DNA of 64,000 nt from Salinispira sp. Lineage in GTDB: Bacteria; Spirochaetota; Spirochaetia; DSM-27196; Salinispiraceae. The stretch spans positions 1,056,001 to 1,120,000 of the forward strand of contig OZ271918.1 of assembly GCA_965602015.1 (NCBI GenBank). The letters are read 5' to 3'. The translations under genes and the position numbers were made by a program. A model generated the notes under the pieces. The model saw only the letters and a list, made by a program, of their open reading frames with translations, made no database searches and was not told the origin of the DNA. This document shows positions 15,516 to 54,538 of this stretch, one piece after another (position 1 is the stretch's first letter; each line of letters begins with the position of its first letter).

Positions 15516-17306
15516 ATGAGTCAAAGATCAGAACCAGCTGCAAATCCAAGCCTGCGGACACGAATAATCGCATTAGTGCTACTCCTGCTGGTTTTACCCC
15601 TGGTATTTTTTTCTGTTGCTGAAGTCATTTTGCAGCTTTCGGGTTACGGTATTGCACCGCGCCTGTTTATAGAGTCTGGAATCCCGGAAACTCTTGTTAT
15701 TAATGATGATTTTTTTAGACTCTTCTACCCTTCAATTAGCCAGACAGCCGTCGAAAGCGGTGAGGTATATAGGCCCAGCCTATTGACCATGCCAAAGCCC
15801 AATGATGTATATCGTGTGTTTATTCTGGGTGGTTCAACCGCCAAAGGATTTCCTTATTACGACCGGCATGCATTTCCCAATATCGCCGCGGAACAGCTCA
15901 ACGCCAATCTGAGGGGAAAGCGCATAGAAGTACATAATCTCGCTCAATCCGCAATGAGCTCATATTATGTCCGTGAAACCGCAAGATTGGCCCGGAAATA
16001 TGAACCGGACCTTATTATCATTTATAGCGGCCATAATGAGTATTACGGGACAATTGCTGCGGGTTCCGGAGGCGGCCACTTCGGCAAAAAACTGTTCATT
16101 GCTCTTAATCGCTTCAGGGTTTTTCAGTTTCTTTTCACTTTGATGGACGGCACAGACCGGACAGCCCCCGTCTCCGAGTCGCTTATGGCTCAGAGATTGA
16201 GGCAGGGTAGTTACCCCGCTGATGTGAATTTTGATGAGCGGATTGCGCGCCGATTTATTGATAACATAGATGATAGCGCACGCTATGCCCGTCAGGCCGG
16301 AATAGATGTACTTGTAATGGAACCCATAAGCAATCTCCTGGACATGCCGCCGTTTTCTTCAACGGCACCAGATCACATCCTCAATGAAATTCGTGACACC
16401 GCATCCCAAGCTCCGGCTAAGGGGCGATGGCCTGACATCGCTGCGGATTTGTTTTCCGATGTTATTGACTCGGAAGATAATGCTCACTTTCTGTACCTGC
16501 GCGAGTACGGTAGCACTGATCCCTCTATTGAAAATCTTGTCATGGCCAAGGATCGAGACACAAGCCCGTTTCGGGCCCGATCCGTTTTGATTGACTCCCT
16601 GCGGGACTGGGCTAATAGAAATCCTGATGTTGGCTATATTGCGACGGATCAGGAAATCCTAAGACTTGATGCTATCGAGAATAGGGGGAACAGTCTTTTT
16701 ATTGATCACTTGCATTTTACCTTTACAGGACAGCTTATCGTGGGCAACATAGTGGCCCGACGTATTGCAGAGCAGTTCTTAGTCGTTGAGGACATGAGTA
16801 TTCTTACAGAGTCCGAAGTAAGAGAACGCATCTTTTTCCATCCGGCACTGCAATACGAAAAGGAAAAATCCGTATTAGAGTTAATCACCCAGCCGCCGTT
16901 TATCAACATGGCATTCCCTTACGTAAATAATCACCTGCGAGAAACTTTGGTAAAAAATCCGCTGAATGACATACCGCAAATTGGAGAGCAGTTAGCACGT
17001 AGCCGTTCAATGGATATACTCCAGTTGGTTGGCGAGTATTATCTCGAGAATCGCCAGTTCGAACAGCTATACGACTTTTTACAGACCCTTGTGTACATAA
17101 ACCCCGGCGATCCGCGGACACATTTGAACCTGGCAGACCTGGTATCCATCAATCCCCAAACCCACCAGGCTGCCTTGTATCATTTTCAAATTGGATATTT
17201 ACTGTCTGGCCGAGATCCTGAAGTTCTCTCGCGCTTTAAGAATTTTACTGAGCAAAATGGATACCAGTCGCAGCTGGAAGCTTTTCTTCAGCGTCTGGGT
17301 GAATAG
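15516..17306 (+). CDS. Membrane-anchored SGNH/GDSL hydrolase-fold protein with C-terminal TPR-like region
   Basis: N-terminal TM, ILGGSTAKG (block I), YSGHNEYYG, FIDHLH (DxxH); TPR-like NPGDPRTHLNLA. Confidence 0.75.
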   Translation: MSQRSEPAANPSLRTRIIALVLLLLVLPLVFFSVAEVILQLSGYGIAPRLFIESGIPETLVINDDFFRLFYPSISQTAVESGEVYRPSLLTMPKPNDVYRVFILGGSTAKGFPYYDRHAFPNIAAEQLNANLRGKRIEVHNLAQSAMSSYYVRETARLARKYEPDLIIIYSGHNEYYGTIAAGSGGGHFGKKLFIALNRFRVFQFLFTLMDGTDRTAPVSESLMAQRLRQGSYPADVNFDERIARRFIDNIDDSARYARQAGIDVLVMEPISNLLDMPPFSSTAPDHILNEIRDTASQAPAKGRWPDIAADLFSDVIDSEDNAHFLYLREYGSTDPSIENLVMAKDRDTSPFRARSVLIDSLRDWANRNPDVGYIATDQEILRLDAIENRGNSLFIDHLHFTFTGQLIVGNIVARRIAEQFLVVEDMSILTESEVRERIFFHPALQYEKEKSVLELITQPPFINMAFPYVNNHLRETLVKNPLNDIPQIGEQLARSRSMDILQLVGEYYLENRQFEQLYDFLQTLVYINPGDPRTHLNLADLVSINPQTHQAALYHFQIGYLLSGRDPEVLSRFKNFTEQNGYQSQLEAFLQRLGE

Positions 17307-17315
17307 AGGGTATAT

Positions 17316-17474
17316 ATGGCAAAAACCAGAGTCATAAAAGAGTTGGTAGAGTACTTGGCAAAAAACAAACGGCTTTTTCTCCTTCCCCTCCTGGTAATTC
17401 TCGGAGTGGTAGGTATCGTGACAATAATTGCTCAGTCGCAGGCAATTGCACCGCTCATTTATACCTTGTTTTAG
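17316..17474 (+). CDS. Small SxtK-like / DUF5989 membrane peptide (52 aa), missing from the ORF track
   Basis: MAKTRVIKELVEYLAKNKRLFLLPLLVILGVVGIVTIIAQSQAIAPLIYTLF*, characteristic IAPxIYTLF end; SD GAGGG; fills the gap before the carbamoyltransferase. Confidence 0.85.
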   Translation: MAKTRVIKELVEYLAKNKRLFLLPLLVILGVVGIVTIIAQSQAIAPLIYTLF

Positions 17475-17475
17475 C

Positions 17476-19332
17476 ATGAACATACTTGGAATCTCAGCCT
17501 TCTACCATGACAGTGCTGCCGCGATAATTACTGATGGGAAAATTGCTGCCGCTGCCCAGGAAGAGCGTTTTAGTCGAAAAAAAGGTGATTCCGGTTTTCC
17601 ACAAAGAGCTGTAGAGTTCTGCTTGAAACAAGCTAATATTTCCGTCGATCAGCTCGAAGCTGTGGTCTACTACGATAAGCCACTTGTAACCTTTGAGCGC
17701 TTAATCATGAGCTATTTACACCGGGCTCCCCATGGCTTTTTCTCGTTTTTCCGCTCCATTCCGGTGTGGATTAAACGCAAGCTTTGGATTGAAGATATTA
17801 TCCGCAAAAAAATTCCTGGTGAGTACACAATACTCTTTTCGAGACATCACCACAGCCATGCGGCCAGTGCGTTTTTCCCCTCCCCATTCAAATCTGCCGC
17901 AATTGTGACATTGGACGGGGTCGGGGAATGGGAAACAACGACCATCGGCAGGGGGAGGGGGAGTTCGCTCGAATTAACCAGAGCAATTCACTTTCCTCAT
18001 TCCCTGGGGCTCTTATACTCTTCGTTCACCTATTACTGCGGTTTCCGGGTTAACTCCGGCGAATACAAACTCATGGGCTTGGCGCCCTATGGCAAACCGA
18101 AGTATGTCCAGCTAATTAAAGATCATTTGATCAGGCTAGAAGAAGACGGGAGCTTTAATCTGAATGAGCGTTACTTCAATTACATTTCCGGCTTGAGGAT
18201 GATAAATACCCGTTTCGAGAAACTTTTTAATCGTGCTGCACGCAAACCTGAGACAAATCCCGATCAATTTTACATGGATGTAGCTGCAAGTATTCAGAAG
18301 GTAACTGAAGATGCGGTGATTGGGATTGCCCGCCAAGCCAAAGCTATCAGCGGGGAAGATAACTTGGTGCTCGCCGGAGGGGTCGCTCTGAATTCCGTTG
18401 CAAATTATCGTATTTTGAAAGAAGGAGGTTTTTCCAATGTGTGGATTCAGCCCGCAGCCGGTGACGCCGGCGGAGCGCTCGGCGCCGCCTTGTATGCCTG
18501 GAATATGTATTATAAGAAGCCTCGGGCCATACCAAGCGAGCTCTCTTCCTCGGAGTATGGCTGGCATGATTTAATGGAAGGGGCCTTGTTGGGACCGGAT
18601 TTTACAGATTCTGAGATCGAAGAAAGCCTGAAAAAGCAGCAGTTGTTCTATGAAAAACTCACAGATTCACAATTATATGATCGGGCCGCTGATTCTTTGA
18701 GCAACGGAAAGGTGCTTGGATGGTTTCAAGGCCGAATGGAGTACGGGCCACGGGCTCTCGGCAGCCGGTCGATTCTCGCCGACCCCCGACAATCAGAAAT
18801 GCAAAAAACTCTCAATTTCAAAATAAAATTCAGAGAGGGATTCCGGCCCTTCGCACCGGTGGTCCTTGCCGAGAAACAGCAAGAATGGTTTGATTTGCAG
18901 CAGGTTTCCCCTTATATGCTCATGGTTGCGCCGGTTTCCGAAATAAAGCGAGTCGGAAGTACGGGCAGGCATCAGAAGGAATCGGGTTTTTCTAGCCTCC
19001 GAGAGAAAAGGTCGGAAATTCCATCGGTAACTCATGTGGATTATAGCGCCCGCCTGCAGTCGGTCCATCGCAAACTTCATGGGAAACTGTACGAGCTGTT
19101 ACAATGCTTCGATAGAAAAACCGGATGCCCTGTTCTGATCAATACGAGTTTTAATGTACGGGGAGAGCCTATCGTGAATTCCCCAGATGACGCTATCCGC
19201 TGTTTCCTCGGCACCCACATGGATGCCCTTGCGATTGGTAACTACTACGTTTCAAAATCAAGGCAAAACCTCGATAAGACTACTTTGGATGATCTACTCG
19301 AAGGCTGGAGGCAAGGACATGTCTATGACTAG
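17476..19332 (+). CDS. O-carbamoyltransferase (NodU/CmcH/TobZ/SxtI family)
   Basis: MNILGISAFYHDSAAA, QEERFSR, HHHSHAASAF, DGVGE, GEYKLMGLAPYG, GPRALG, NTSFN; start ATG 17476. Confidence 0.93.
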   Translation: MNILGISAFYHDSAAAIITDGKIAAAAQEERFSRKKGDSGFPQRAVEFCLKQANISVDQLEAVVYYDKPLVTFERLIMSYLHRAPHGFFSFFRSIPVWIKRKLWIEDIIRKKIPGEYTILFSRHHHSHAASAFFPSPFKSAAIVTLDGVGEWETTTIGRGRGSSLELTRAIHFPHSLGLLYSSFTYYCGFRVNSGEYKLMGLAPYGKPKYVQLIKDHLIRLEEDGSFNLNERYFNYISGLRMINTRFEKLFNRAARKPETNPDQFYMDVAASIQKVTEDAVIGIARQAKAISGEDNLVLAGGVALNSVANYRILKEGGFSNVWIQPAAGDAGGALGAALYAWNMYYKKPRAIPSELSSSEYGWHDLMEGALLGPDFTDSEIEESLKKQQLFYEKLTDSQLYDRAADSLSNGKVLGWFQGRMEYGPRALGSRSILADPRQSEMQKTLNFKIKFREGFRPFAPVVLAEKQQEWFDLQQVSPYMLMVAPVSEIKRVGSTGRHQKESGFSSLREKRSEIPSVTHVDYSARLQSVHRKLHGKLYELLQCFDRKTGCPVLINTSFNVRGEPIVNSPDDAIRCFLGTHMDALAIGNYYVSKSRQNLDKTTLDDLLEGWRQGHVYD

Positions 19333-19714
19333 GGTCACGCGGTTCGGACAAAAGCGGATAATCCAAAGCATAGTGTTCAGTCTGATTGGCATGGGCTTGC
19401 TCGCCAGTCTTCTACTTTTGCGTGGGCACCGAACCGCGGCTATTACGGTAATTATCCTTGCGTTCTTACATGGCGCGTTGAATCTTTTATGGCGCGGATA
19501 TAGAACTGCTTTTAGCCGTTTTTCAGTTGCCATGATACGGCTGATTGGGACTATCATCAGCGCCGTTGTCCTGGGTTTGTTTTATTTCACCGTGTTCTCC
19601 GTTTTCTCATTGCTGTGGAAACTTTTCAGAAAGGATGAACTTATACGCAATGGCGGATGGCAGGTAATCGATTCCAGGGAAAACGACCCTTCACGGCTTG
19701 AGAAACTCTATTAG
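19319..19714 (+). CDS. SxtJ-like membrane protein
   Basis: 3 TM; C-terminal LGLFYFTVF...LFRKDEL...W...RLEKLY pattern; overlaps the carbamoyltransferase stop (start 19319 or 19325). Confidence 0.7.
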   Translation: MSMTRVTRFGQKRIIQSIVFSLIGMGLLASLLLLRGHRTAAITVIILAFLHGALNLLWRGYRTAFSRFSVAMIRLIGTIISAVVLGLFYFTVFSVFSLLWKLFRKDELIRNGGWQVIDSRENDPSRLEKLY

Positions 19715-20580: not shown

Positions 20581-21801
20581 ATGAAGAAACTGCGAAATTT
20601 GGGGATAGCGCTTCTGGCCGCATTGGTTCTCTTGGCCGGCTGTGCAAACCCCTTTGTTGGAGAAGATGGTGAAGTTGCCACCGTCAGCGGAATCGAAGGT
20701 TCCTCTGGTTTAGGTGTCATCGAACTGTCTTGGACTGAACCGGATGTAGACTTTGCTCAGGTGGAAATCTCATTTTCATCGGAGACTGATACCGACAACA
20801 CAGTCGTTACAGTAGACAAAGGGACCACGTCCTATACATTCGAAGAATTGACCGGTGTCGACGAAGAATACACCTTCGTGTTTACCACCGTCACTTCGAA
20901 TGGTGTGAAGGCAAGTAAAACGGCGACGTTCGCAATCACCGAAGGTCAACTGACTGTAGCCGATTTGGCCGCTGCGGTGGAAAGCACCAGCTCTGCAATG
21001 CTCACATGGACAGAGCCGGACTTCCCCTATGACAGCGTTACCATCGATTGGGTTAACGTTAATGACGCCGCGGACAACGGATCGGTAGCCGATATTGCCC
21101 GTGACGAAAAATACGATGACACCGACACAGAAACCGAATGGGACCCCAACAGATCCTATGAGGTTACGGGACTTACTCTCGACGAAACCTATACCTTCGA
21201 GGTGACCATCGTTCTCGGCAGCCGCTCATCTTCAGTCTCCGTTACTTCTGATGAATTGCTTCTTGAACTCTATCAGGGTTTCCCGAATATCTACACTTTC
21301 GGACCCGAGCTGGTAGGTGGATGGCCCGGTCAGGCTGACGTTGCGGTTAATGCTGATACTGGTCTTCGAAGCATCACCTTCGCTGCGCAAAGTTCAATCG
21401 ACGGAGTAATTCTGAACGGCGGCGGACTCACACAGACTGGTAATATCGCTATTAGCGCTCCCGGCGTGTATCTCATCGACGTGGACAATGATACGGTTTT
21501 CGGAGCTACTGATCCCAGCACTGTAATTGTAATGTGGGCGGACAGAAACAGACCGAACGTATATACATTCACTCCCGAAGCTGCAGGTGGATGGCCCGGC
21601 ACAAGCCCCGATGAAGTTAAGGGAATCCGTTCATTTGATACCGAATTGACAAGTGTCGGCGGAGTAATCCTCAACGGAACCGGCCAGACCGGAAACATGA
21701 CCAATACCACCGAAGCCGGTTATTACCTCTATACCGCGGTTGATACCCTTACCAAGCTCGGTCCGGACGGCGGTACTGACATCGTTATTTATTGGAAATA
21801 A
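20581..21801 (+). CDS. Acidic surface lipoprotein with two fibronectin-III-like domains and two tandem CBM26/CBM25-like repeats
   Basis: SD AAGGAGG; LAGC lipobox; LSWTEP/LTWTEP...Y.F FN3 pattern; repeats PNxYTF..GGWPG...GVILNG..QTGN. Confidence 0.7.
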   Translation: MKKLRNLGIALLAALVLLAGCANPFVGEDGEVATVSGIEGSSGLGVIELSWTEPDVDFAQVEISFSSETDTDNTVVTVDKGTTSYTFEELTGVDEEYTFVFTTVTSNGVKASKTATFAITEGQLTVADLAAAVESTSSAMLTWTEPDFPYDSVTIDWVNVNDAADNGSVADIARDEKYDDTDTETEWDPNRSYEVTGLTLDETYTFEVTIVLGSRSSSVSVTSDELLLELYQGFPNIYTFGPELVGGWPGQADVAVNADTGLRSITFAAQSSIDGVILNGGGLTQTGNIAISAPGVYLIDVDNDTVFGATDPSTVIVMWADRNRPNVYTFTPEAAGGWPGTSPDEVKGIRSFDTELTSVGGVILNGTGQTGNMTNTTEAGYYLYTAVDTLTKLGPDGGTDIVIYWK

Positions 21802-21816
21802 GCACAGGAGAATGAC

Positions 21817-23928
21817 ATGAAAAAACTAGTTCTTGTTGTAACAGCTCTCCTTCTCGCGGTACTGCCCGTTGTGGCCCAGTCTTCCGTGAGTCTTGAGCTC
21901 CCCGATGAGCTGGTACTGGTGTTCCGCTATGAGAACGCCGATGCCGCCACGGTGAATATTGCCGGCCCCTTCCAGGGCTGGGATCCCGAAGCCACTCCCA
22001 TGGAGCAGGTTGAACCGGGAATCTGGGAATATCGGCTCGATGTAACAGCCGCCGACTCCATCACATTCAAATATGTTGTCGATGGTGAGTATCTCGGAAG
22101 CATGGAAGGTCTTGCTCCTTCTACCAGCGAAGACGGATTCGGTGGTAAGAACGGGGTTGTGGCTGTGGCTGACATGGCTGCTGCAGGTGGAGCAGATGAC
22201 GATGTGTTCCGCACAAGCCTTACCTTCGGCTCATTTACCCAGTTCTACTCAGACACCAGCATCAGAACAACATCTATCGCTCCCGGCGATGACGGCGATT
22301 TTCTCAAGGGCTTTGAAATGGATAACAGTATTTTCAAGGCTGCGTCCTACTGGAAATACACTGCCGGCATCCTTCCCGGTATCGATTCCTTTATTGAGCT
22401 AAAAGCCTTTGACGGAACCATCACCATATTCGAACAGGCTCCCGATGCCAGTGCGGATCCCGATAATATTCTCGATCCAGCAGTCACCATCGAGGATGGA
22501 CTGGAAAATATCGCTGAAGCGCTTTTTGGTCCTTTCCATACCTTCAACGGCGATGCCCAGCCCGAGCTCGGCCATTTTAAGGCCGGCATAACGACTCCGT
22601 TTGTTGAGTTCTCGACAGGGTACAAAAATGCCAAAAGCGACGAATCCAGCCGCGAGTTGATGTACGAAACCTTCGACAACGGCGCCAGTGCCAACGACGG
22701 TTTCTTTGAAATCGCAAACGGTGCAGAAATTTCCGAGTTCGGCGGGCTGACTCTTGATGTCTTGCTCGGACTCACTAAGCGGGCCGGCGGACACGGTATG
22801 TACTCCTGGATCGATCTCGGCGTTGCAGGTTTCGATATCAGCATCGCATACAACACCCTCGCCAACCGTCTTGATGACGATGCCCTTCGCTACTACTTCT
22901 TCGATGCACGGCACACCATCGGTCTCGGACTGGATGCAGCTGACCTGGTTCCCGATCTTCTGAGCCTAAAAGTAGAAGCCTTGACCACCATTGACGCACT
23001 TGAAACCTATGATGCCGCTGATGACATTGTTGCCGGTCTCGCAGGTGATCTTACTCTCAGTGATATTTTCTCAAGCGGCTTCTATGCAAAGTATGCGGGC
23101 AACGGTGTTGTTACCCTCTTCGGTGACGACAGCACTCTCGATGCAGGACTGTTCAAAGCCGGTATTTCGCCGGTAAGCAAACCCATCGAACTTCTTCAGG
23201 TCGGGGCCAATTACGATCTTGAGGTGGACAATGAGTTCGCTGGGGACCTGGAACACGATATCAATCCGTACCTGAACGTGTATCTGGCTTCCGTACTCGG
23301 TCTCGACATCACCGTCGGCGGCTTTTCGAACCTCGCCCTTGTTGGTTCGGACTTCAGCTTCGTCGATGCAGGCGGTACCGTGAGCGTAAAGGACGTGGCT
23401 ATTCTTTCTGAAATTGGTCTGGGGTACACCTACAAGCAGGATGCGGCCGATACCGGATACTTCAATGTGGCAACCGGCGAACTGATTCCGGTTATATCCA
23501 CCGTATACGCCGGATATGATTACACCGCTGAAGCCCTCGATCAGGGTGCGGCTTATCTGGGTACTGAAATTGTCGGAATCGCCGAAGCCATCGAAGGCAT
23601 CAATGTAGATTTCGGCTGGAAGGCCCAGGATGTGTCCATGATGGCTCAGGCGGATTTTGTCAACGATTTCGCTGCAAACCTCGGCGCCATCGTACGACTG
23701 GCAGACGGCGAAACTTCTCCCTTCGGTGTGGCACTCGGCGGTAACGTGACCCTCAATGACGCCTGGAAGAAAGGCATCGCCTTCCTCCAGATGGGATATG
23801 ATTTTGATCCCTATGGCGGCATAAATGACGGCAAGATTGACTTCGACGAAGATTCACCCAACTACCTCGAAAATGTTGGCGGTCAGGGCGAAGCGTTTGT
23901 ATCTTTTGGTATCACCTGGAACTTCTAA
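21817..23928 (+). CDS. Predicted outer-membrane beta-barrel protein with N-terminal CBM48/AMPK-beta-like glycogen-binding domain
   Basis: Sec signal (VVA|Q); V.IAGPFQGW..PM...GIW...FKYVVDG...DGFGGKN; amphipathic Gly/aromatic strands; C-terminal FGITWNF. Confidence 0.7.
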   Translation: MKKLVLVVTALLLAVLPVVAQSSVSLELPDELVLVFRYENADAATVNIAGPFQGWDPEATPMEQVEPGIWEYRLDVTAADSITFKYVVDGEYLGSMEGLAPSTSEDGFGGKNGVVAVADMAAAGGADDDVFRTSLTFGSFTQFYSDTSIRTTSIAPGDDGDFLKGFEMDNSIFKAASYWKYTAGILPGIDSFIELKAFDGTITIFEQAPDASADPDNILDPAVTIEDGLENIAEALFGPFHTFNGDAQPELGHFKAGITTPFVEFSTGYKNAKSDESSRELMYETFDNGASANDGFFEIANGAEISEFGGLTLDVLLGLTKRAGGHGMYSWIDLGVAGFDISIAYNTLANRLDDDALRYYFFDARHTIGLGLDAADLVPDLLSLKVEALTTIDALETYDAADDIVAGLAGDLTLSDIFSSGFYAKYAGNGVVTLFGDDSTLDAGLFKAGISPVSKPIELLQVGANYDLEVDNEFAGDLEHDINPYLNVYLASVLGLDITVGGFSNLALVGSDFSFVDAGGTVSVKDVAILSEIGLGYTYKQDAADTGYFNVATGELIPVISTVYAGYDYTAEALDQGAAYLGTEIVGIAEAIEGINVDFGWKAQDVSMMAQADFVNDFAANLGAIVRLADGETSPFGVALGGNVTLNDAWKKGIAFLQMGYDFDPYGGINDGKIDFDEDSPNYLENVGGQGEAFVSFGITWNF

Positions 23929-23940
23929 GAGGAGAAGGCA

Positions 23941-24378
23941 ATGAAAAAAACAGTATTAGTTATTGCCGTCCTTATGGCGGCAGTGCTTCTTGGTTCCTGC
24001 GGGAATACCCTTTTTAACGCAAGCGGAGTGTTCATCACCGAGCTTACTGTTGAGAACCTTCCTGCAGAGGGCGAATATGCTCTTGCCGGTTCGTTTTTCG
24101 AGGAAGAATGGACCAACACCTATCTGGCAACCCAGTCGGTGGAAGGTTCGGTAACCTGGGAATTTGACCCCGCGCTTGAGGTACCGGTCGGTGATTCGGA
24201 GTTCAAGATTGTTCAGTCCGGCACTTGGAATTTCGCTGTCGAAGGAGGATTTAGAGATCCCCACGGCAACGCGAACGTCTTCGACGCCGAAGGTCTGACC
24301 ATCGACGGCGGCGAGTGGGTTATTACCTTCGATGCCACCAAGACCGAGTCTGAAGCCATGACTGCGGTTAAACCGTAA
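23941..24378 (+). CDS. Small lipoprotein with SusE/F- or X25-like carbohydrate-binding module
   Basis: LGSC lipobox; YALAGSF...W...EFKIV..GTW pattern; operon context. Confidence 0.6.
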   Translation: MKKTVLVIAVLMAAVLLGSCGNTLFNASGVFITELTVENLPAEGEYALAGSFFEEEWTNTYLATQSVEGSVTWEFDPALEVPVGDSEFKIVQSGTWNFAVEGGFRDPHGNANVFDAEGLTIDGGEWVITFDATKTESEAMTAVKP

Positions 24379-24485
24379 CAGCATTTTTCCCTTCCGGCAT
24401 TCGCCGGGGGGGATTTCGAGCGTCGCTTTCGATTCCGAAGCGGCGCCCGGTATCCTCCTTTTTTGGGGTAGCGTTGGGGTTTCGG

Positions 24486-24521
24486 GGCTGCTTGGTGTTT
24501 CACCAGGCAGCCTTCTTTTTT
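24486..24521 (+). terminator. Intrinsic terminator immediately upstream of the GH13 ribosome-binding site
   Basis: GGCTGCTTGGTG-TTT-CACCAGGCAGCC followed by TTCTTTTTT. Confidence 0.75.
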
Positions 24522-24530
24522 GGGGGAGTA

Positions 24531-26501
24531 ATGAATAAGAGCGTAATCATTTTGTCGGGCATTTTGGCGGTGCTTATATTATTAACATCCTGTCCCGGAC
24601 CGGTGGACAGCGGCACAACTATTCCGGCCGATTGGCAGTACGGTGCCGAATATTTGGGTTCAGGCCGGGGAACGCGATTTGTTCTTCACGCTCCCGGGGC
24701 TTCCACCGTCTATGTCAGCGGTACGTTCAATAGTTGGGATAAGACCCCTATGAACCGGGACGGCGATAATTTCTGGGTTTAAATTACCTCTGCATCCCCG
24801 GGCGACCGGTACAAGTACCGGTCAGATGATTTTAGCGGTGAATGGATAGCCGATCCATTTTCCCGGGCGGTGAGCGCTGACGCCGATGAGAACTCGGTAA
24901 TAATTGACCCTGACGGCCCTGCTTCCAATTATATCTGGCAGTCCACTGCCTGGGCCCGCCCGGACCGCCGGGATTTGGTCATTTACGAGATGCATGTGGC
25001 GGACTTCACCTGGCAGGAAAGGGAGGCTCCGTCTTCAAGCGCAGGCCTGGTTGACGGAGATGCGGTGTCCGACGGCAACCAGGGAAGCTTCGACGGTGTC
25101 ACCGAACGCATTGAGTACCTTGAGGCCTTGGGTGTCAATGCGGTCCAGCTCATGCCGGTCCAGGAATGGCCGGGGCAGTTCTACAGCTGGGGGTACAATC
25201 CCTCGCTCTATTGGGCAATCGAAGCGGGGCTTTCCAGCAATAGAAGCGATCCGGAACAGGTGCTTCTGGACTTCAAGGAAATGGTCGACGCTCTCCATCA
25301 ATCGGGGATAGCGGTGATTCTTGATGTGGTGTACAACCACGTTGACGGCTCCTCTCCGTTGAGCAGAATCAATACTGCTGGCTATATCGACGGCGATACT
25401 CCCTGGGGCCCAAGGCTGGACATTAGCGATGACTTTATCTACTCCTATGTTCTGGATAATCTTAAGTACTTAATGGATGAGTTTCGAATTGACGGCTTCC
25501 GGTTTGATGCCACGGAACACAGCGACGGGGCCTCAATGCGCTCGCTGATTAATGAACTCTACAGCCTGGGTTACGGCGACCGCTATTATATTTTTGAGGA
25601 ATTCAACGGCGACCACAACGAGGCGATTCAAGCATATAATGCCCTCCACGGGGAAACCCGAATATCCAGCTGGGGCACGGGCTACAAGGATGCCATCTAT
25701 CCGGCACTGGCTGATGCGGGATACTCCGGCCTGGGTTCGGTGACCTATCACTCAAATGATAACGGCTGGATTCAGGCGGCTTCGGCCATCAGCTATGCAA
25801 GCAGCCACGACGAGGGAACCCTGTACTTTCATGCAGGCAATGACGATATAAGCTCTGACGGAATCGGCGATGACCTTGCCGATCAAAAGCAGCTTGCGCT
25901 GACCTCCCTTACCCATGTACTCACAAGCCTCGGAATTCCCATGATCTGGATGGGAGACGAGCTCATGCGCGATCACCGGGGCAATAGTTCCGATACGGTC
26001 AGCGGTTCCGGAAGCAATGTGGATGAAATCAACAATCAGGTCGATTGGCAGGGGCTTGCCTCGGCAAACAGCGAGTACTTTCTATACCTCAGTAACCTGA
26101 TTCACCTGCGTGCTATACATCCGAGCATCGGCCGGGCAGTCAGCCAACCGGACAGCGACGGAAGTTCTCTGTCCGACGGATTTATGTGGTTAAATAGTTG
26201 GGGAGATGAGGGTGACATTAGCACCGGCCTGATTGCGTACATCAGGGCGGTAGCAGGAGACCGGCCCTTCGCCGTCTTTATCAATTACGGTGATTCCGAC
26301 AAATCAGGATTTGTTGTTAATCTTCAGCCGCCATACCAGTCGTTAAATGAGAGCTGGACCCTTGTTGCCGACAGTTCAATCCCTCTGGCTTCTCAGGCCG
26401 GGCTGTCTGTGGGCGGTGATTTGCTGTTTGCCGGTGGACAGGCGACGCTTACAATTCCTTCCAATACCGCATATATTTTTATGGGGCCCGTGAATTTCTA
26501 A
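24531..26501 (+). pseudogene. GH13 alpha-amylase-family lipoprotein (CBM48 + catalytic domain), interrupted by a single in-frame TAA at 24780-24782
   Basis: ORFs 24531-24782 and 24870-26501 share one frame; read-through gives NFWV*ITSASPGDRYKY...IADPFSRA (CBM48); LTSC lipobox; IYEMHV, WGYNP, LDVVYNH, GFRFDA, FEEF, SHDE catalytic motifs intact. Confidence 0.85.
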
Positions 26502-26519: not shown

Positions 26520-26975
26520 ATGCGCCGTTTTTTTATAATTTACACCAGCCTGTCCCTCCTCTTTTGCGCCCCGCTGTGGACCCAGGAGCTTCCCCGTGAG
26601 GTGACAAGTTTTATGGCGGTTGATGAAAATTTCTCCGCCGACCGCAGGTATGCCCAGGTAATAAAGGCCGAGGCCAGACAGGCGCCCAACGGAACGTGGG
26701 TTATTTCCACCACAATTGACCACAATGACGAACGGCTTCCCGACGGAACCGAGCACTACGCCGACCGTTGGGAGGTGGTAGACCCGCGAAACGGCGAGGT
26801 GCTGGCCGTGCGCAGGCTTCTTCACTCCCATATGTACGAAATGCCCTTTACCCGCAGCCTAAGCGGCGTGGTGATTCCCGAGGGACTGGACCGGGCACAC
26901 ATTCGGGCGGCCTGCACCCATCATGGTTTTGCGGGCCGGCAGGTTCTTTTGCCCCTGTTCAGCCGGGAAGAGTAA
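26520..26975 (+). CDS. Exported His-rich hypothetical protein, superoxide-reductase-like metal-site motifs
   Basis: SD GGAGGTG; signal peptide; IDH...EHYADRW, LLHSH..E.PFTRSL, ACTHHG. Confidence 0.7.
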   Translation: MRRFFIIYTSLSLLFCAPLWTQELPREVTSFMAVDENFSADRRYAQVIKAEARQAPNGTWVISTTIDHNDERLPDGTEHYADRWEVVDPRNGEVLAVRRLLHSHMYEMPFTRSLSGVVIPEGLDRAHIRAACTHHGFAGRQVLLPLFSREE

Positions 26976-27066: not shown

Positions 27067-27960
27067 ATGAGCAGCAGCACGGCCACAGCGGTACCGGTAC
27101 AGGATATACATCTACAGCTTTTTGAGCAGGGGAGTCGGACCTACTACAACGCCACCCGTTTTTTTCCCCGGGAGCTCAGAGAGAGGGTAACCCTCCTGTA
27201 TGCCTTTGTGCGCAAGGCCGACAGTCTTGTGGATGATATCCCCCAGGATCGGGCAGGTTTTGAAGCGTTCTGCAAGGCATTCGAGAGCCTGCGGGAGGCC
27301 GCAGCGGTGGATCTGTCCATTGTAAACAGCCCCGATGTTGATCCGGTGATCGGCGGTTTTGTCTACCTCGAGAAAACCTGTCCCTTTGATCCGGCTTGGG
27401 CAGATGCTTTTCTTTACAGCATGCGACTCGACCTTGAAAAGAGTCATTACGACTCCCTTAATGAAACCCTCGAATATATCTACGGCTCGGCTGAGGTAAT
27501 AGGGCTTTTTATGGCGAGAATAATGGGCCTGCCGGATGACTCTCTGGAAGGGGCAAAAATGCTCGGACGGGCAATGCAGTATATCAATTTCCTGCGGGAC
27601 GCCGACGAAGACAATGAACTTGGCAGACGCTATATCCCTTTGAGGGAGTCGGGACTTGCGGGACTCGACAAGGCAAGCGCCTCCAAACAGCCATTGGTGT
27701 TTGAGAAATTCTACCGGGAAGAACTGAACCGTTTTCGCCGGTGGCAGGCCGACGCGGATACAGCGTTTAAATATATTCCCCGCAGATACCGAATACCCAT
27801 AAGAACCGCGTCGGATATGTACCTGTGGACCGCAGAACAGATTTACCGTGATCCCTGGGTGATCTTCGACCGTCAGGTAAAGCCCGGAAAGCTCCGAATT
27901 ATCCTCAGGGGCTTAGCAAATACGCTTCGAGGCGGCATGCCGCGGAAAATGCGCTACTAA
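27067..27960 (+). CDS. crtB: Phytoene synthase
   Basis: LYAFVRKADSLVD, YIYGSAEVIGL, LGRAMQYINFLRD..ED..GRRY. Confidence 0.92.
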   Translation: MSSSTATAVPVQDIHLQLFEQGSRTYYNATRFFPRELRERVTLLYAFVRKADSLVDDIPQDRAGFEAFCKAFESLREAAAVDLSIVNSPDVDPVIGGFVYLEKTCPFDPAWADAFLYSMRLDLEKSHYDSLNETLEYIYGSAEVIGLFMARIMGLPDDSLEGAKMLGRAMQYINFLRDADEDNELGRRYIPLRESGLAGLDKASASKQPLVFEKFYREELNRFRRWQADADTAFKYIPRRYRIPIRTASDMYLWTAEQIYRDPWVIFDRQVKPGKLRIILRGLANTLRGGMPRKMRY

Positions 27961-27989
27961 AGCGATTAGCCAAAACGGAGATCGGATAC

Positions 27990-29504
27990 GTGAACCACAG
28001 TGCAGCTAAAAAAAAGACGGTGATTATCGGGGCGGGTTTCGGCGGTTTGGCCTCTGCCCTCTATCTGGCCTCCAAGGGCAGGTCTGTCGCCGTATACGAC
28101 AAACGGGATCAACCGGGCGGCAAGGCCTACTCCTTTAGCCTCGGGGAATACCGGTTCGATGCCGGTCCCAGCCTCTTCACCCTCCGGGATTATTTTGAAG
28201 AGCTTTTTTCCCTCTCGGGGGCCCGATTTTCCGACTATGTAGAAACAATTGAACTTGACCCCATCACCAGCTATTTCTTCGCCGACGGCAGCACAATCCG
28301 CAGCAGACCGGGAAAGGCTTTTCTCGATGAGGTGGAACAGTTCGCCCCGAATCAGCGGGAGGGTATGATGCGGTACCTGGAGTACTCGAAGCGCATACTC
28401 GACATCAGTGAGGACCTCTTTCTCAAGAATCCGTTGAGTCACTGGAAATCCGGCGGTCCTCTGACCGCGGTTAAAAACCTTATGAAGCTCGGGGGAATAG
28501 ACGTTTTCCGCCGCATGCACAATGCCAACTCGGGCTTCGTGTCTGATCCTCGGTTAATCCAGCTTCTCGACCGCTTCGCGACATATAACGGGTCCAATCC
28601 ATATCTGGCGCCGGCGGCTCTCAACTGCATAGCCTGGGTGGAACACGGACGCCCGGTGTATGCCCTTCGTCATGGAATCGCAGCCATCCCTGCGGCCATG
28701 GAAAAGCGTGCGAGGGAGCTGGGGGTTGAGTTTCACTATGGAAAAGAACTGATGTCGTTCCAGCCTCCTGATTCGGGTGCGGATAAGTTCCGCCTGCATT
28801 TTTCCGACGGCGAAATTGTGCGAGCCGATAAACTCATCGCCGATGTGGACATCCTGCGATGGTACGAAGACATCGCCAAAACTCCTAAGCGTCATGCGGC
28901 AAAACGCTATAGAAGGCAACCCTCCAGTTCCTCGGCAGTGGTGTTCTTTTGGGGAGTTAAAGAAGCGTTCCCCCGCTTGGGGCTGCACAACATATTCTTC
29001 TCGTCGGATTACCGGCATGAGTTCGACCAGATTCACCGGGAAAAAAAACTGCCCGATGATCCGACGGTGTATGTAAACATCGGGTCGAAATTCAGCCCCG
29101 AGGATGCTCCGGAGGGCTGTGAAAACTGGTTCGTCATGGTCAATGCTCCCTGGCACAGCGAGGGGCGTTCCTGGGAAAAGGATATCGGAAAGCTTCGCTC
29201 GACGGTAATCGAACGGATAAATCGGGACCTCGGGACCAACCTCAGCCCGCTCATTGCGGAGGAGAGGATTCTCAGTCCCGACATAATAGAGGAAGAAACC
29301 GGCAGTTATCGCGGCAGTCTGTACGGAATCAGTTCAAACAATATGACCGCCGCGTTTCGCCGACACCCGAACCGGTCGCCCTATTTGAGGGGTTTGTACC
29401 ACTGCGGCGGAAGCGTACACCCGGGCGGCGGCATGCCCCTTGCCGTCAGTTCAGGCATGATAGCTGCCCGACAACTTTTGGAGGATGAAAGTGGAAGCAA
29501 GTAA
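27990..29504 (+). CDS. crtD: Phytoene-desaturase-family FAD oxidoreductase, probably 1-hydroxycarotenoid 3,4-desaturase
   Basis: GAGFGG, FDAGPSLFT, RFATYNGSNPY, GSLYGISSN, GSVHPGGGMP; adjacent to cruF. Confidence 0.75.
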   Translation: MNHSAAKKKTVIIGAGFGGLASALYLASKGRSVAVYDKRDQPGGKAYSFSLGEYRFDAGPSLFTLRDYFEELFSLSGARFSDYVETIELDPITSYFFADGSTIRSRPGKAFLDEVEQFAPNQREGMMRYLEYSKRILDISEDLFLKNPLSHWKSGGPLTAVKNLMKLGGIDVFRRMHNANSGFVSDPRLIQLLDRFATYNGSNPYLAPAALNCIAWVEHGRPVYALRHGIAAIPAAMEKRARELGVEFHYGKELMSFQPPDSGADKFRLHFSDGEIVRADKLIADVDILRWYEDIAKTPKRHAAKRYRRQPSSSSAVVFFWGVKEAFPRLGLHNIFFSSDYRHEFDQIHREKKLPDDPTVYVNIGSKFSPEDAPEGCENWFVMVNAPWHSEGRSWEKDIGKLRSTVIERINRDLGTNLSPLIAEERILSPDIIEEETGSYRGSLYGISSNNMTAAFRRHPNRSPYLRGLYHCGGSVHPGGGMPLAVSSGMIAARQLLEDESGSK

Positions 29505-30252
29505 GAAACCCTATGTTCCGGCTCTGGCCCTTGGGGTTATTCTCATTATGTATGCCGTAGGAGTGGTCGGACATGTGGTTCCGTTTTTTCTGCCGCTGAT
29601 GATTACCCTGACCCCGTGGATTCTTCTGGGATTCGCTGTGGTGACCATAGTCATGACTCTCATTTCACCCCGGCGCAGCGCCGCGGAAAAGCGGAACATA
29701 ATGATCTGGCTTGGGGTTACCTGGATAGCCACATTCATCCTGGAAGCCGTGGGGGTGGAGACCGGCAAGGTTTTCGGGGAGTACTACTACGGCGAAACCC
29801 TCGGTCCCCAGCTTTTTGAGACTCCGGTAATCATCGGCCTTAACTGGTGCATAATTATTTTTGGTATTTCAGAAACCCTGAGAATGAAGCGCTTCAGCCT
29901 TCTGGCAGCCCTTATCGGGGTGCCGATCGGCGCGGTGCTGTTCGATATCGCCCTGGAGCCGGTAGCCATGTCGGTTCTCGACTACTGGACCTGGCCCGGA
30001 GGAACAGTTCCCCTGCAAAATTACATTGCCTGGGGTGTGATCAGCTTTGTTTTCGCCATTCTGTATTTCCTGATGATTCCCTATCCCCTGCCGGACCGGG
30101 ACTTTGGGAAGCCCGAGCCCGGTGCCGACGGGCGCAGGAAGGCCGTTGATATGCTGTTCTACCGCAGCGACAAATATTTCCCGGGCTTATACGTGGCCGT
30201 TCAGTTCCTGTTTATCTTCTCGCTCAACCGCCTTCTGCCATTTATCGGATAG
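29485..30252 (+). CDS. cruF: Carotenoid 1,2-hydratase (CruF family membrane protein)
   Basis: EAVGVETGKVFGEYYYG, NW, FDIALEPVA, YWTW, VPLQNYIAW. Confidence 0.82.
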   Translation: MKVEASKKPYVPALALGVILIMYAVGVVGHVVPFFLPLMITLTPWILLGFAVVTIVMTLISPRRSAAEKRNIMIWLGVTWIATFILEAVGVETGKVFGEYYYGETLGPQLFETPVIIGLNWCIIIFGISETLRMKRFSLLAALIGVPIGAVLFDIALEPVAMSVLDYWTWPGGTVPLQNYIAWGVISFVFAILYFLMIPYPLPDRDFGKPEPGADGRRKAVDMLFYRSDKYFPGLYVAVQFLFIFSLNRLLPFIG

Positions 30253-51315: not shown

Positions 51316-52167
51316 TTACTTTCCTATACCCGATGACAGCCCGGTCACCACGTAGCGCTGGAAAACCAGAACCGCCAGCACAATGGGAACAAGGGTGAGT
51401 ACGGTGCCCGCGGCAATCCATGTCCACTGAAGCTCAAAGGCCTGACTCAGGCTCAGTATTGCCACCGGCACGGTTTCAACCTCATCGGCGCCGATGGATA
51501 CCACATTCGCAAGCATAAACTCCCCCCAGGAACCCAGAAAAGCAAGAACCCCTGCGGAAAATATTCCCGGGGCGGCTATGGGAAGCACCACCTGCATAAT
51601 TGTTCTCCACGGACCGGCGCCGTCTATTTTGGCAGCGTCGTCGAGCTCAAACGGCACGTTGGCGAAATAGCTGGCGATGAGAAAGGATGAGAGGGGTACC
51701 GCATAGGCCGCATTGGGAAGGATCATTGCCCAGTAGGTCCTGATCAGTCCAAGGGCCCGAAGCAGTACAAAGGTCGGCGCTATAACGATAATCGGCGGAA
51801 TCATTCCGGCAATCTGCATCCCGTACAATGTTATCATTCTGTAGCGAAAGCGAAGCCGGGCGATGGCGAAGGCCGACAGGGTGGAGAGTACCAGGGTACC
51901 CACAAGTGCGCCGCTTGAGACAACCAGACTGTTGAGAATGGAGCGCTGCACGGTGAACCGTTCACCCAAAACCGTTCGGTAGTTTTCCAGGGTCGGGTTT
52001 TCCGGCCAGTATTCCACGGGAATACGGAATTCCGTCCCCGCTGGTTTTATGGATGTCAGACCGATCCACACCAGAGGTGCCAGGCACCACACGGCGATCA
52101 GCGCAAACAGAAGAACTGAAAATGACCGGTTTAACCGGCGTCGCGCGCTTAAGGTCATAATTGTCAC
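51316..52167 (-). CDS. Carbohydrate ABC permease (MalG-type)
   Basis: ENY, NSL, EAA-like LDDAAKIDGA, FQRY..GL. Confidence 0.9.
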   Translation of the reverse strand: MTIMTLSARRRLNRSFSVLLFALIAVWCLAPLVWIGLTSIKPAGTEFRIPVEYWPENPTLENYRTVLGERFTVQRSILNSLVVSSGALVGTLVLSTLSAFAIARLRFRYRMITLYGMQIAGMIPPIIVIAPTFVLLRALGLIRTYWAMILPNAAYAVPLSSFLIASYFANVPFELDDAAKIDGAGPWRTIMQVVLPIAAPGIFSAGVLAFLGSWGEFMLANVVSIGADEVETVPVAILSLSQAFELQWTWIAAGTVLTLVPIVLAVLVFQRYVVTGLSSGIGK

Positions 52168-53064
52168 CTATTCCCGAAAATTAAAATTCCGACGGACCCG
52201 ATTAATATAGAGAACTCCGATTACCGCAACCAGCAGGAATGTGACCACCGCATAGGTTGATCCCTGTCCGAATTGGGCGTACCTGAAGTATTCCGTATAG
52301 GCATAGGAACTGAGGGTGTCGGTTGCGGTCCCCGGTCCGCCACCGGTAAGCCCGTATACCACATCGAAGACTCTCAGGGCATCCTGGGTGCGGTACAGCA
52401 GGGCTACATACACCGTCGGCATGAGCACCGGTAAAGTTATTGAGAAAAATCGGCGCAGGGGTCCGGCTCCGTCCACCCTGGCGGATTCGATTATTTCCCG
52501 TGGCACAAGCGCAAGGCCGCCCATAAGAAAGAATGCGGCCACACTCGCCCCCTTCCAGGTATAGGCGAGGGCTACGCTCCCCATTGCCAGAAACTGATTG
52601 ACCAAAAACAGCGGGGGCTCGGAGGTGATGCCGCTGCGGACAAAGAGGTCGGCTATTGGCCCCACATCGGCATTAAGCATCCATCGCCACATGGAGGCCT
52701 GAATCACCTTTGGTATAGCCCACGGGACAATGATTATTGCCCGCAAAATCCCCCGAGCTCTCTTTGGCACAAAAAAGGTCGCCAGAGCCAGGCCCATTCC
52801 GAGGCTAAGGTCGAGGGCGACGACCGCAATCGTGAACCCGACGGTAAACATCAGGGTATACCAGAACTGTCCACTGCTCATTACCCGGCGGTAGTTATCC
52901 AGCCCCGCAAAGGGGCTGTTTACCCAGTCCGTCGTGAGATCGAGATCAAAAAACGAATATATCAGAGTTTGAATAATTGGATAGTAATTAAAGACCGCCA
53001 AAGCCGCCAGGGCGGGAAAAACAAGCAGTACTCCGAGGCGAGTTTCATTTCCTTTTTTTAGCAG
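52168..53064 (-). CDS. Carbohydrate ABC permease (MalF-type), probable CTG start
   Basis: GLDNY, PWAIP, ESARVDGA, FD..YGLTGGGPG; AGGAG 6 nt before in-frame CTG at 53064. Confidence 0.85.
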   Translation of the reverse strand: MLKKGNETRLGVLLVFPALAALAVFNYYPIIQTLIYSFFDLDLTTDWVNSPFAGLDNYRRVMSSGQFWYTLMFTVGFTIAVVALDLSLGMGLALATFFVPKRARGILRAIIIVPWAIPKVIQASMWRWMLNADVGPIADLFVRSGITSEPPLFLVNQFLAMGSVALAYTWKGASVAAFFLMGGLALVPREIIESARVDGAGPLRRFFSITLPVLMPTVYVALLYRTQDALRVFDVVYGLTGGGPGTATDTLSSYAYTEYFRYAQFGQGSTYAVVTFLLVAVIGVLYINRVRRNFNFRE

Positions 53065-53122
53065 AGTACGCTCCTGAAGAATCCCGCCACCGATAAACCG
53101 ACGGCGGCGGGAGGGTAATACC

Positions 53123-54400
53123 TTAATCCCGTAGGGCTTCTGCACGCTCGGCCATGCTGGCCAAAACCGCATCGATCGACCGGGTGCCGGTTACCGCGGC
53201 GTTGAGTTCTTCCTGAAGCATTCCCGATAGCTGGGCATAGCTTTCCGACGGGGGACGGTTCGTTGCTCTTTCCAGTAGCGGAATAAGCCGGTCCACATTC
53301 GGATTAAAAGCCTGAACCTCCGGGTCATCGTAGAGGCCGTTAAAATACTGCACCGGTCCCCAGGCAAGGGCGAAGCCTTTCTGAACCGCCTCGCTGGCAA
53401 TGACTTCCATTACCTGCAATGCCGCTTCGGTTTTCTCGCTAAAGGGATTCACCGCAAAGGCGAATCCGCCGGTTATGGAGACTTCTTCACCGTCGCTCTG
53501 GGCGGGAAAGCGCATGAGGTTCCAGTTGCCGGCGATTTGTGACTGCTGTGGATCATCGAGCCAAATAACAAGGTCGTTATTGTCCCAGAGAAAAATACCG
53601 TTGCCCCCGGCGAACCGCTGGCGGGCTTCGGTTCGCTGCCAGTTCTGAACCACCTGCGGAGAAACGCCGCTGTCTATGGATTGCCGCATAAACTCAAGGG
53701 CTTCACGGCTTGCCTGTGAGTCAAATGCATAACTTCCGTCTTCATTGAGGTAGCCGCCGCCGAAGGCGTGGAGAAGGGTGGAATAGTACATCACCAGGTC
53801 TTCGTCCCTGGCGCCGGGCCAGAGGAAACCGCTTATCTCCGGATCATCGGCCTGGACAGCCTCGATTATCGCCACCATTTCATCAATGGATTCCGGCGGC
53901 GCAAACCCGTACTCTTCGAGGATGTCGGTCCGGTAGTACAATCCGGTAACCGAACCCCAGAAGGGTACGCCGAGACGGCTGCCTTCATATGAAAATGTGT
54001 CCAGACCTGAAGAGCTGAAACTGCCTTCGAGTTCGGGCAGAGCGTCGTTCAGGGGGAGCGCCCAGCCGGCGCGTCCGAACTGGGTCACCCAGGGTTCATC
54101 GATTCCGTAAATATCGACGGTGGTGTCCCGGGAGGTCATCCAGATAATAAGAGTGTCCAGGAGATCCTGAGCCATGGTCTCGTACTCGAGTACGATATCC
54201 GGATACTGTATGGCCAGTTCGGCCCGGATAGCGTCGATGGGCGCCGGGGCATCGGTAAACGAATTGGACAGAAACGCGTTGTAGCCCAGGGTCACCGTTA
54301 CCGGTCCCTCTGGCGCAGGCTCTTCGCCGCCGCCGCCCGCGAAGGCCAGCGACGAGATCAACAGCAGCGCCGCCGCTGCCATAAAAGGTGTTTTCCACAT
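53123..54400 (-). CDS. Carbohydrate ABC substrate-binding protein (trehalose/maltose-binding-like)
   Basis: Signal peptide AFAGGGG, LYYRTD, F..G..IF..N, GG..FAVN; ATG 54400 after GGAGG. Confidence 0.88.
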   Translation of the reverse strand: MWKTPFMAAAALLLISSLAFAGGGGEEPAPEGPVTVTLGYNAFLSNSFTDAPAPIDAIRAELAIQYPDIVLEYETMAQDLLDTLIIWMTSRDTTVDIYGIDEPWVTQFGRAGWALPLNDALPELEGSFSSSGLDTFSYEGSRLGVPFWGSVTGLYYRTDILEEYGFAPPESIDEMVAIIEAVQADDPEISGFLWPGARDEDLVMYYSTLLHAFGGGYLNEDGSYAFDSQASREALEFMRQSIDSGVSPQVVQNWQRTEARQRFAGGNGIFLWDNNDLVIWLDDPQQSQIAGNWNLMRFPAQSDGEEVSITGGFAFAVNPFSEKTEAALQVMEVIASEAVQKGFALAWGPVQYFNGLYDDPEVQAFNPNVDRLIPLLERATNRPPSESYAQLSGMLQEELNAAVTGTRSIDAVLASMAERAEALRD

Positions 54401-54538
54401 ATGTTCCTCCTTGTGCTTCACCTCGGGCGATGGGGGCGTCCTTCGCCCGACCGTCGCCAATAAACAATGCTGCTCACATGCCGTCAATTCCGGACGTATC
54501 CTCACTCATGCAGGGCATCCGGACTCGGGCTGCAAAAC

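Follow-up and report, generated by a model that had tools for sequence, protein, structure and literature searches.

A predicted TonB-independent oligosaccharide channel at polysaccharide-utilization-like loci of spirochaetes

The DNA analyzed here, hereafter the window, is a stretch of 64,000 nucleotides of Salinispira sp. (positions 1,056,001 to 1,120,000 of contig OZ271918.1, assembly GCA_965602015.1), taken from a genome assembled as a single contig of 3.87 Mb and 99.67% complete. An earlier note, made from the sequence alone, described in it four co-oriented exported genes, here g1 to g4, and read them as a Sus-like alpha-glucan capture system built around a different barrel. The four genes are confirmed, all on the plus strand and all with export signals. 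The reading is supported by synteny, by the absence of TonB, SusC/SusD, and LamB, and by a model of the barrel, with several changes of detail. Sequence comparison and structural modeling together suggest that the barrel, encoded by g2, is probably a TonB-independent oligosaccharide channel that has surface accessories, serves polysaccharide-utilization loci (PULs), and feeds MalEFG-type ATP-binding cassette (ABC) importers. Its likely cargo is starch- or glycogen-derived oligosaccharides, or galactan fragments in a variant of the system.

The locus and its barrel protein

The first three genes are tightly packed, with 15 nt between g1 and g2 and 12 nt between g2 and g3, whereas g3 and g4 are 152 nt apart; Shine-Dalgarno-like sites are present. 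The hairpins in the last gap are strong (z -5.06 against 200 shuffles) and may attenuate transcription between the two genes.

Table 1. Features of the barrel locus, and the sugar importer located elsewhere in the window
Feature	Position	Strand	Description
g1	20581..21801	+	406-aa lipoprotein; lipobox Cys21; two FN3 domains; two C-terminal GGWPG repeats of ~88 aa
g2	21817..23928	+	703-aa core protein; signal peptide, CBM48, predicted 26-strand outer-membrane beta-barrel
g3	23941..24378	+	145-aa lipoprotein; Cys20; single beta-sandwich (model); two conserved Trp
Intergenic hairpins	24379..24530	+	terminator-like stem at 24484-24514, followed by a U run
g4	24531..26501	+	CBM48-GH13 lipoprotein gene; lipobox Cys21; in-frame TAA at 24780-24782
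g5	26520..26975	+	151-aa exported protein, 18 nt 3' of g4
Sugar ABC importer	51316..54505	-	binding protein TMBP/MalE3-like (disaccharide type); not gene-linked to the barrel

The AlphaFold2 model of the g2 protein, based on an alignment of 85 sequences, is an all-beta barrel (pLDDT 88.6, pTM 0.75). It comprises a CBM48 at about residues 26-125 and the barrel at about 134-703, ending in W-N-F, with no plug-sized domain between the CBM48 and strand 1. DSSP assigns 26 long strands after the CBM48. Because strands 20-21 occur in only 10 of the 85 rows of the alignment, the other 24 being present in 84-85 of them, the family core has 24 strands. The strands show amphipathic alternation. Most links that lead from an odd to an even strand are long, reaching 43 residues, and most of those from even to odd are short, with one low-confidence exception of 34 residues. 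In outer-membrane barrels the pattern of link lengths tells which side is periplasmic, and this places both termini of the protein, and hence its CBM48, in the periplasm. Barrel closure and pore size are inferred from the same model.

The ~570 residues beyond the CBM48 match no Pfam or NCBIfam model, and a barrel-only profile finds nothing among PDB sequences at E 10, including no usher or LptD chain. In Foldseek, the FimD/PapC ushers and LptD come first (E ~1e-7 to 1e-6, TM 0.2-0.37, 7-9% identity), and in a VIA fold search the scores are 15.8 for AlgE, 15.4 for chitoporin, and 13.9 for maltoporin, at an rmsd of 6-7 over ~260 residues. All the best matches of the model are outer-membrane barrels; they show the class of the protein and point to no specific family. 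On the basis of strand periodicity, conserved aromatic and charged residues are predicted to face the lumen on strands 25, 26, 1, 2, 3, 6, and 8. Conserved aromatics occupy 10 of the 142 predicted lumen positions, seven of them on strands 25, 1, 2, 3, 6, and 8.

The CBM48 of g2 scores above the Pfam cut-off, is of the AMPK-beta type, and aligns with the AMPK-beta glycogen-binding domain. The N-terminus carries the conserved W, K, W/Y, and N residues, which we take to act in the glycogen site of AMPK; K85, N112, and W/Y92 are each kept in 72 of 72 rows. By its strand topology, the model predicts for this domain a periplasmic catcher rather than a surface binder. Truncated copies of the family N-terminus, holding only the CBM48, are found at L068:5170-5553, L069:9533-9916, and L060:11911-12369. 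In the genomes G302 and G310 no barrel domain was found elsewhere, and truncated CBM48-only copies may be relics of a lost barrel.

An alpha-glucan-binding element had been proposed for each of the four genes. This is firm for the CBM48s of g2 and g4 and weak for g1 and g3. The FN3 domains of g1 are clear (PF00041, E 1e-11). Its GGWPG repeats (21280-21552 and 21544-21798) are 41% identical to each other, and one of them matches CBM26 weakly, below the cut-off (E 0.011). With these repeats, a search of PDB sequences returned nothing meaningful and the Atlas gave no usable match; nor did a profile of the WPG-containing segments of partner lipoproteins match them significantly. The N-terminal FN3 part of g1 is common to lipoproteins upstream of the barrel in two other genomes (G005 and G022), and the repeat region has a single weak match in 300 other genomes. 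The g1 lipoprotein is an accessory component that varies between loci.

The model of g3 (15 sequences) is a beta-sandwich with pLDDT 71. In VIA, starch-binding modules (CBM20, 26, 25, and 41) make up most of its best matches, with Z of 5-6.7 that is tied with unrelated sandwiches and lies in the uninformative range. Foldseek returns nothing at E 0.001 or better, there is no significant family match, and the g3 profile finds nothing meaningful among PDB sequences. Partner lipoproteins elsewhere are modular: CBM26 is clear in one of them (E 6e-8), and another has an X25 domain (E 1e-3). As the g3-type profile matches only 12 of 64 partner lipoproteins from GTDB genomes, the partner slot is more conserved than its sequence.

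The description of g4 as a CBM48-GH13 lipoprotein holds for its domains and for its catalytic regions: GFRFD, IFEE, and SSHDE, aligned with intact homologs, supply the Asp-Glu-Asp residues of GH13. It does not hold for the reading frame, as no intact frame leads from the signal peptide to the catalytic domain. The TAA (Table 1) splits the CBM48, the same frame runs on into a complete GH13 domain, and a downstream GTG has no Shine-Dalgarno-like site. In a genome of the same genus (G002) the homolog is intact (629 aa, 54% identity), with GAA (Glu) at the position of the stop codon. The solved sequences closest to this intact homolog are the alpha-amylases 8xx9/8xxa and B. ovatus BoGH13ASus (8dge/8dl1). 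By these comparisons g4 is a probable pseudogene in this strain.

A sequencing error is not supported. Over the full 3.1 kb compared, contigs of two runs (X1 and X2) show zero differing letters, and a 225-nt contig of a third run (X3) covers the stop, again with zero differing letters; a fourth run (X4) has no coverage there. The three agreeing runs are of one sample, possibly the source of the assembly itself. Readthrough or recoding is unlikely because TAA terminates g2, g3, and other genes of the stretch, and because the sense codon of the homolog is one base away. The genome holds 24 GH13/GH31-like loci, seven of which besides g4 carry a lipobox in a pattern search, so that the loss of g4 could be buffered.

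Conservation of the loci and distribution of the family

The earlier note had named synteny as a check, and the outcome differs by level: the barrel and the next lipoprotein are widely kept, and the exact four-gene order is not. For example, the order is lipoprotein-barrel-lipoprotein in G005 and barrel-lipoprotein-lipoprotein-GH13 in G002, which makes the barrel plus the next lipoprotein the conserved unit. A first set of 23 barrels has a lipobox ORF starting within 470 nt 3' of the barrel in 21 cases. A scan of GTDB genomes gave 79 loci, of which 4 lack a complete barrel end and 5 have less than 800 nt downstream, leaving 70 to be scored. The next gene encodes a lipoprotein in 63 of these 70, against 76 of 736 long ORFs of the window's own genome (59/70 against 37/736 with a hydrophobic-core filter). 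Forty loci extend 5 kb or more downstream; GH13, GH57, or GH31 genes flank 33 of them, compared with 9.7% of random 18-kb windows of the same genome, and a MalE/MalF-like gene is present in 8. Pfam matches in 58 neighbors include pullulanases, alpha-amylases, GH57, GH31, and sugar-binding proteins, as well as sugar ABC genes. The linked binding proteins score with both the MalE and the GanS models, below the cut-off.

The local absence of SusC/SusD and LamB-like genes, already remarked in the earlier note, extends to the whole genome. Profile searches of it whose controls worked (TONB INDEPENDENCE) gave no match to PF00593 (TonB-dependent transporters, TBDTs), PF02264 (LamB), PF07980 (SusD), or PF03544 (TonB); the positive control for PF00593 rang in 3 of 14. 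The g2 protein itself matches neither PF00593 nor PF02264. LamB is found in none of five barrel-bearing genomes tested, and G002 and G005 have no TBDT.

The sugar ABC importer of the window had been suggested to act downstream of the barrel. Its binding protein resembles trehalose/maltose-binding proteins, and it is not the best candidate partner: a closer relative of the barrel-linked importers lies at C1:569-572 kb of the same genome, in a MalEFG-like cluster with a LacI regulator that is the closest match there (C1:569-573 kb, L166:9106-13530). A microbial rhodopsin-like ORF, so named by sequence appearance, lies at ~612 kb of the same contig (L167:22-858, G000:C1). The proposed link to a phosphohexomutase has no support as a general rule. 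An ortholog (50% identity) abuts the locus in G005; no other case was noticed, and cases were not counted.

The named relatives of g2 belong to Spirochaetia. The barrel-only profile finds the family in 80 of 301 genomes of a Treponemataceae-level family (f12) and in 24 of 401 genomes of a class-wide sample. A first search of the phylum (22/401) had scored three candidates per genome and taken in CBM-only matches, and the barrel-only profile was used instead. With the full-length profile, 5 of 84 genomes of the window's own order match, indicating a patchy distribution. The GTDB loci include Treponema socranskii, T. porcinum, T. saccharophilum, T. ruminis, Rectinema subterraneum, and Brucepastera parasyntrophica. 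Seven members (L105, L106, L108, L110, L111, L128, and L137) come from bins labeled as non-spirochaete; they nest among spirochaete sequences where tested and are probably misbinned contigs. Some gut treponemes have up to at least four barrel paralogs. Four genomes (L053, L244, L245, and L246) have two in tandem, each from a distinct clade of the tree and in most cases with a lipoprotein of its own behind it, which suggests an old duplication. One barrel gene (L061:9267-11057, G376) contains two in-frame TGA stops, and is either a broken copy or a sequencing error.

The multiple paralogs and the truncated CBM-only copies of some genomes are also what would be seen if the barrel were a general porin or adhesin like Msp/Tpr, its CBM48 serving as a tether to starch granules or periplasmic glucan and the hydrolases being incidental. 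An ESM Atlas feature search has an Msp cluster in third place (0.92, with 170 features shared). We consider this explanation very improbable, since MOSP_N and MOSP_C match 0 of 28 family members, the barrel-only profile reaches no more than 2.6 bits against 21 ORFs taken from Msp/Tpr loci, the hhalign alignment with Msp is confined to the N-terminal signal region (prob 56), and the linkage to hydrolases is far above background. Furthermore, Tprs are modeled with 10 extracellular loops in the part of the source consulted (PMC13749626), compared with 12-13 predicted here. Membership of g2 in Msp/Tpr is rejected: it has no MOSP_N, MOSP_C, or NF033926 match, while an Msp control matches NF033926 at E 6e-178. 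MOSP_C was found in 0 of 3 barrel-bearing genomes tested, and in the two genera with MOSP_C the barrel family was found in none of 20 and none of 14 genomes.

Other genes adjoin the locus. A homolog of g5 (62% identity) also follows the GH13 gene in G002 and was not seen in the other four loci compared. Downstream of g5, at 27067-30252 of the window, are carotenoid-type genes (phytoene synthase-like, desaturase-like, and a membrane protein), and a carotenoid-type block is also found 3' of the locus in G002. On the other side, at 15516-19714, are genes for an SGNH-like protein, a carbamoyltransferase, and a small membrane protein. The SGNH-like/carbamoyltransferase block is beside the barrel in G014 (L024:130-4356) and G350 (L058:15342-19547) too. 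All these names are given by sequence appearance.

The galactan-type clade

Two barrels without CBM48 were first seen between genes for GH53 galactanases. Of ~32 short or fused barrel matches, 20 were examined for such a context, and in all 20 the CBM-less barrel is fused to a GH53 or directly preceded by one, with a second GH53 downstream. The galactan-type Treponema loci are L222-L241, L066, and L067 (proteins P0105 and P0175; L223 has a 1217-aa ORF). A recurrent upstream gene is GH35, as tested in one representative. In several assemblies GH53, a Big4 domain, and the barrel are fused without an internal signal peptide, beside unfused forms. The CBM-less Treponema clade is predicted to mark a galactan utilization locus. 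In a quick tree, 11 galactan-type rows (9 of the 20 GH53-type loci, plus L066 and L067) form one clade with SH-aLRT 100, sister to the starch-type barrel of G002.

The two types of barrel differ at predicted lumen positions. Comparing 72 CBM48-type with 20 GH53-type rows in full-length numbering, position 178 is Y in 55/72 versus N in 20/20, position 180 is K in 63/72 versus W in 20/20, and position 192 is F/Y in 56/72 versus D in 15/20. At position 331 the W of the CBM48 type becomes mostly aliphatic, whereas both types retain the neighboring wall residues W179, G295, and G641. This joint change fits a lumen that sees the sugar, and shared ancestry alone could also explain it.

The g3-type lipoprotein is found by its profile behind 19 of the 20 galactan-type barrels, where it is 32-43% identical to the partner in G002. 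Hence, g3 is more likely, by comparison of these loci, a dedicated partner of the barrel than a starch-specific binder.

The near-obligate pairing of barrel and lipoprotein genes could also mean that the barrel is an exporter or anchor, in a Slam- or usher-like role, that brings lipoproteins and amylases to the surface while sugars enter through other porins. A pore in the size range of FimD/PapC and LptD, which lead the Foldseek list, would suit such a role, as would the presence in some gut treponemes of up to at least four paralogs, often each with its own lipoprotein. Yet it is not evident why an exporter should need a conserved glycogen-binding CBM48 or a fused galactanase, its predicted lumen aromatics would not be expected to change with the hydrolase family while the homologous partner lipoprotein stays, and neither usher nor LptD chains in PDB match in sequence. 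On balance export seems unlikely.

As the CBM48 and the fused GH53 are both N-terminal, they are predicted to be periplasmic. This is compatible with the same channel acting in a system whose binders and hydrolases are all periplasmic, and in which long glucans or pre-cut dextrins are admitted and processed inside; the width of the barrel could leave room for long chains. According to the abstract of PMC7521688, the numerous lipoprotein immunogens of T. pallidum are likewise periplasmic. Surface display is, in contrast, suggested by the build of g1, with its FN3 stalk as a spacer and its terminal repeats as binders, and by the homology of g4 to the structure of the B. ovatus Sus amylase. An entirely periplasmic system is accordingly an improbable alternative.

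Proposed function and comparison with known systems

We thus favor a channel with surface accessories, against which several points can be raised. A barrel of 24-26 strands is far wider than sugar porins require, and its leading Foldseek matches are exporters of proteins and lipopolysaccharide (LPS). The lumen assignment comes from the periodicity of the strand sequences rather than from inspected coordinates. The CBM assignments of g1 and g3 are below significance, and g4 is broken in this strain. Seven of 70 barrels lack the lipoprotein, and 7 of 40 loci lack a detectable alpha-glucan hydrolase. Three of five barrel-bearing genomes tested (G014, G282, and G362) have one TBDT each, far from the locus. 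The locus counts are descriptive, as the loci are kin and the 23-barrel and GTDB sets partly overlap, and the background comes from one genome. Finally, the galactan-type barrels form a single clade, so that the swap counts as one event.

If the barrel is a channel, uptake could proceed in five steps. Exported GH13 or GH57 lipoproteins, whose genes are observed at the loci, would cut the polymer outside. In this strain the linked amylase is broken, and the seven other predicted GH13 lipoproteins could supply the cutting. Accessory CBM-type lipoproteins such as g1 might hold the substrate near the cell. Maltodextrins would then diffuse through the barrel along the lumen track of strands 25-26-1-2-3, 6, and 8, with g3 acting as lid, plug, or feeder. 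The predicted periplasmic CBM48 would capture the oligosaccharides and keep the gradient inward. A MalEFG-type ABC importer, gene-linked in 8 of 40 relatives and unlinked here, would carry them across the inner membrane. A more ambitious proposal, which we hold only tentatively, is that of a third class of outer-membrane glycan importer: a plug-free channel of 24-26 strands with a small lipoprotein as its lid and with exchangeable modules in the periplasm (CBM48 or a fused hydrolase) that ratchet the substrate inward without TonB. If true, it would be the spirochaete counterpart of SusCD, mark the PULs of these bacteria, and explain the feeding of gut treponemes associated with starch and fiber.

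Within the literature searched, the barrel family at the core of this PUL-like system is apparently undescribed; most subscription papers, and supplements with possible proteomics tables, lay outside that scope. The parts consulted of PMC13749626, bioRxiv 10.1101/2025.01.03.631275, PMC13543919, and PMC5643300 mention no such family, and the third, a 2026 review of bacterial glycoside transporters, contains neither "spiroch" nor "treponema". How polysaccharide fragments pass the spirochaete outer membrane is not covered in the searchable literature, and the family provides a concrete, testable candidate. About one in four of the Treponemataceae-level genomes sampled carries it, among them those of named species from the rumen, gut, and mouth. 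The barrel can serve as a genomic marker for glycan loci in spirochaetes, and the starch and galactan versions of it make a natural pair for probing channel specificity.

Among known systems, the spirochaete barrels of Msp/Tpr type are of comparable length and have similar language-model features, but share no profile homology with g2 and differ in the number of loops, as discussed above. The barrels of LptD and of FimD/PapC have 26 and 24 strands, close to the size predicted here, they lead the Foldseek rows, and LptE provides a precedent of a small lipoprotein held inside a large barrel. However, the structural similarity is low (the TM and identity values given above), there is no sequence match, and the context is one of glycan hydrolases with no LPS or pilus genes.

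The resemblance to the Sus systems and PULs of Bacteroidota is one of organization. A barrel gene is followed by its lipoprotein partner, with accessory binder-like lipoproteins and a lipoprotein GH13, and loci are re-tooled for other glycans through a swap of hydrolases. BoGH13ASus is among the closest solved relatives of the intact g4 homolog. As in SusC/SusD PULs, glycan-specific hydrolases and binder lipoproteins are co-located, the identity of the binders being weakly supported. In contrast with Sus, the spirochaete locus has no plug domain and the genome no TonB, TBDT, or SusD. The barrel has 24-26 predicted strands instead of the 22 of SusC and carries its own CBM48, the partner is a beta-sandwich of ~125 aa and not SusD, and inner-membrane uptake would use gene-linked ABC importers.

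With LamB-MalEFGK, and also ScrY, chitoporin, and CymA, the proposed system shares a maltodextrin entry that needs no energy and is coupled to an ABC importer of MalE type. LamB forms a trimer of 18-strand barrels and has in its lumen an aromatic greasy slide, which the predicted aromatic row of g2 recalls. The fold similarity to maltoporin (Z 13.9) and chitoporin (Z 15.4) is generic, with rmsd of 6.6-6.7 over ~260 residues and ties with many other barrels. Unlike LamB, g2 lacks PF02264 and has 26 predicted strands instead of 18, whereas LamB has neither a fused CBM nor a lipoprotein partner. In conclusion, the proposed system would work as a hybrid of Sus and LamB-MalEFG and is a member of neither.

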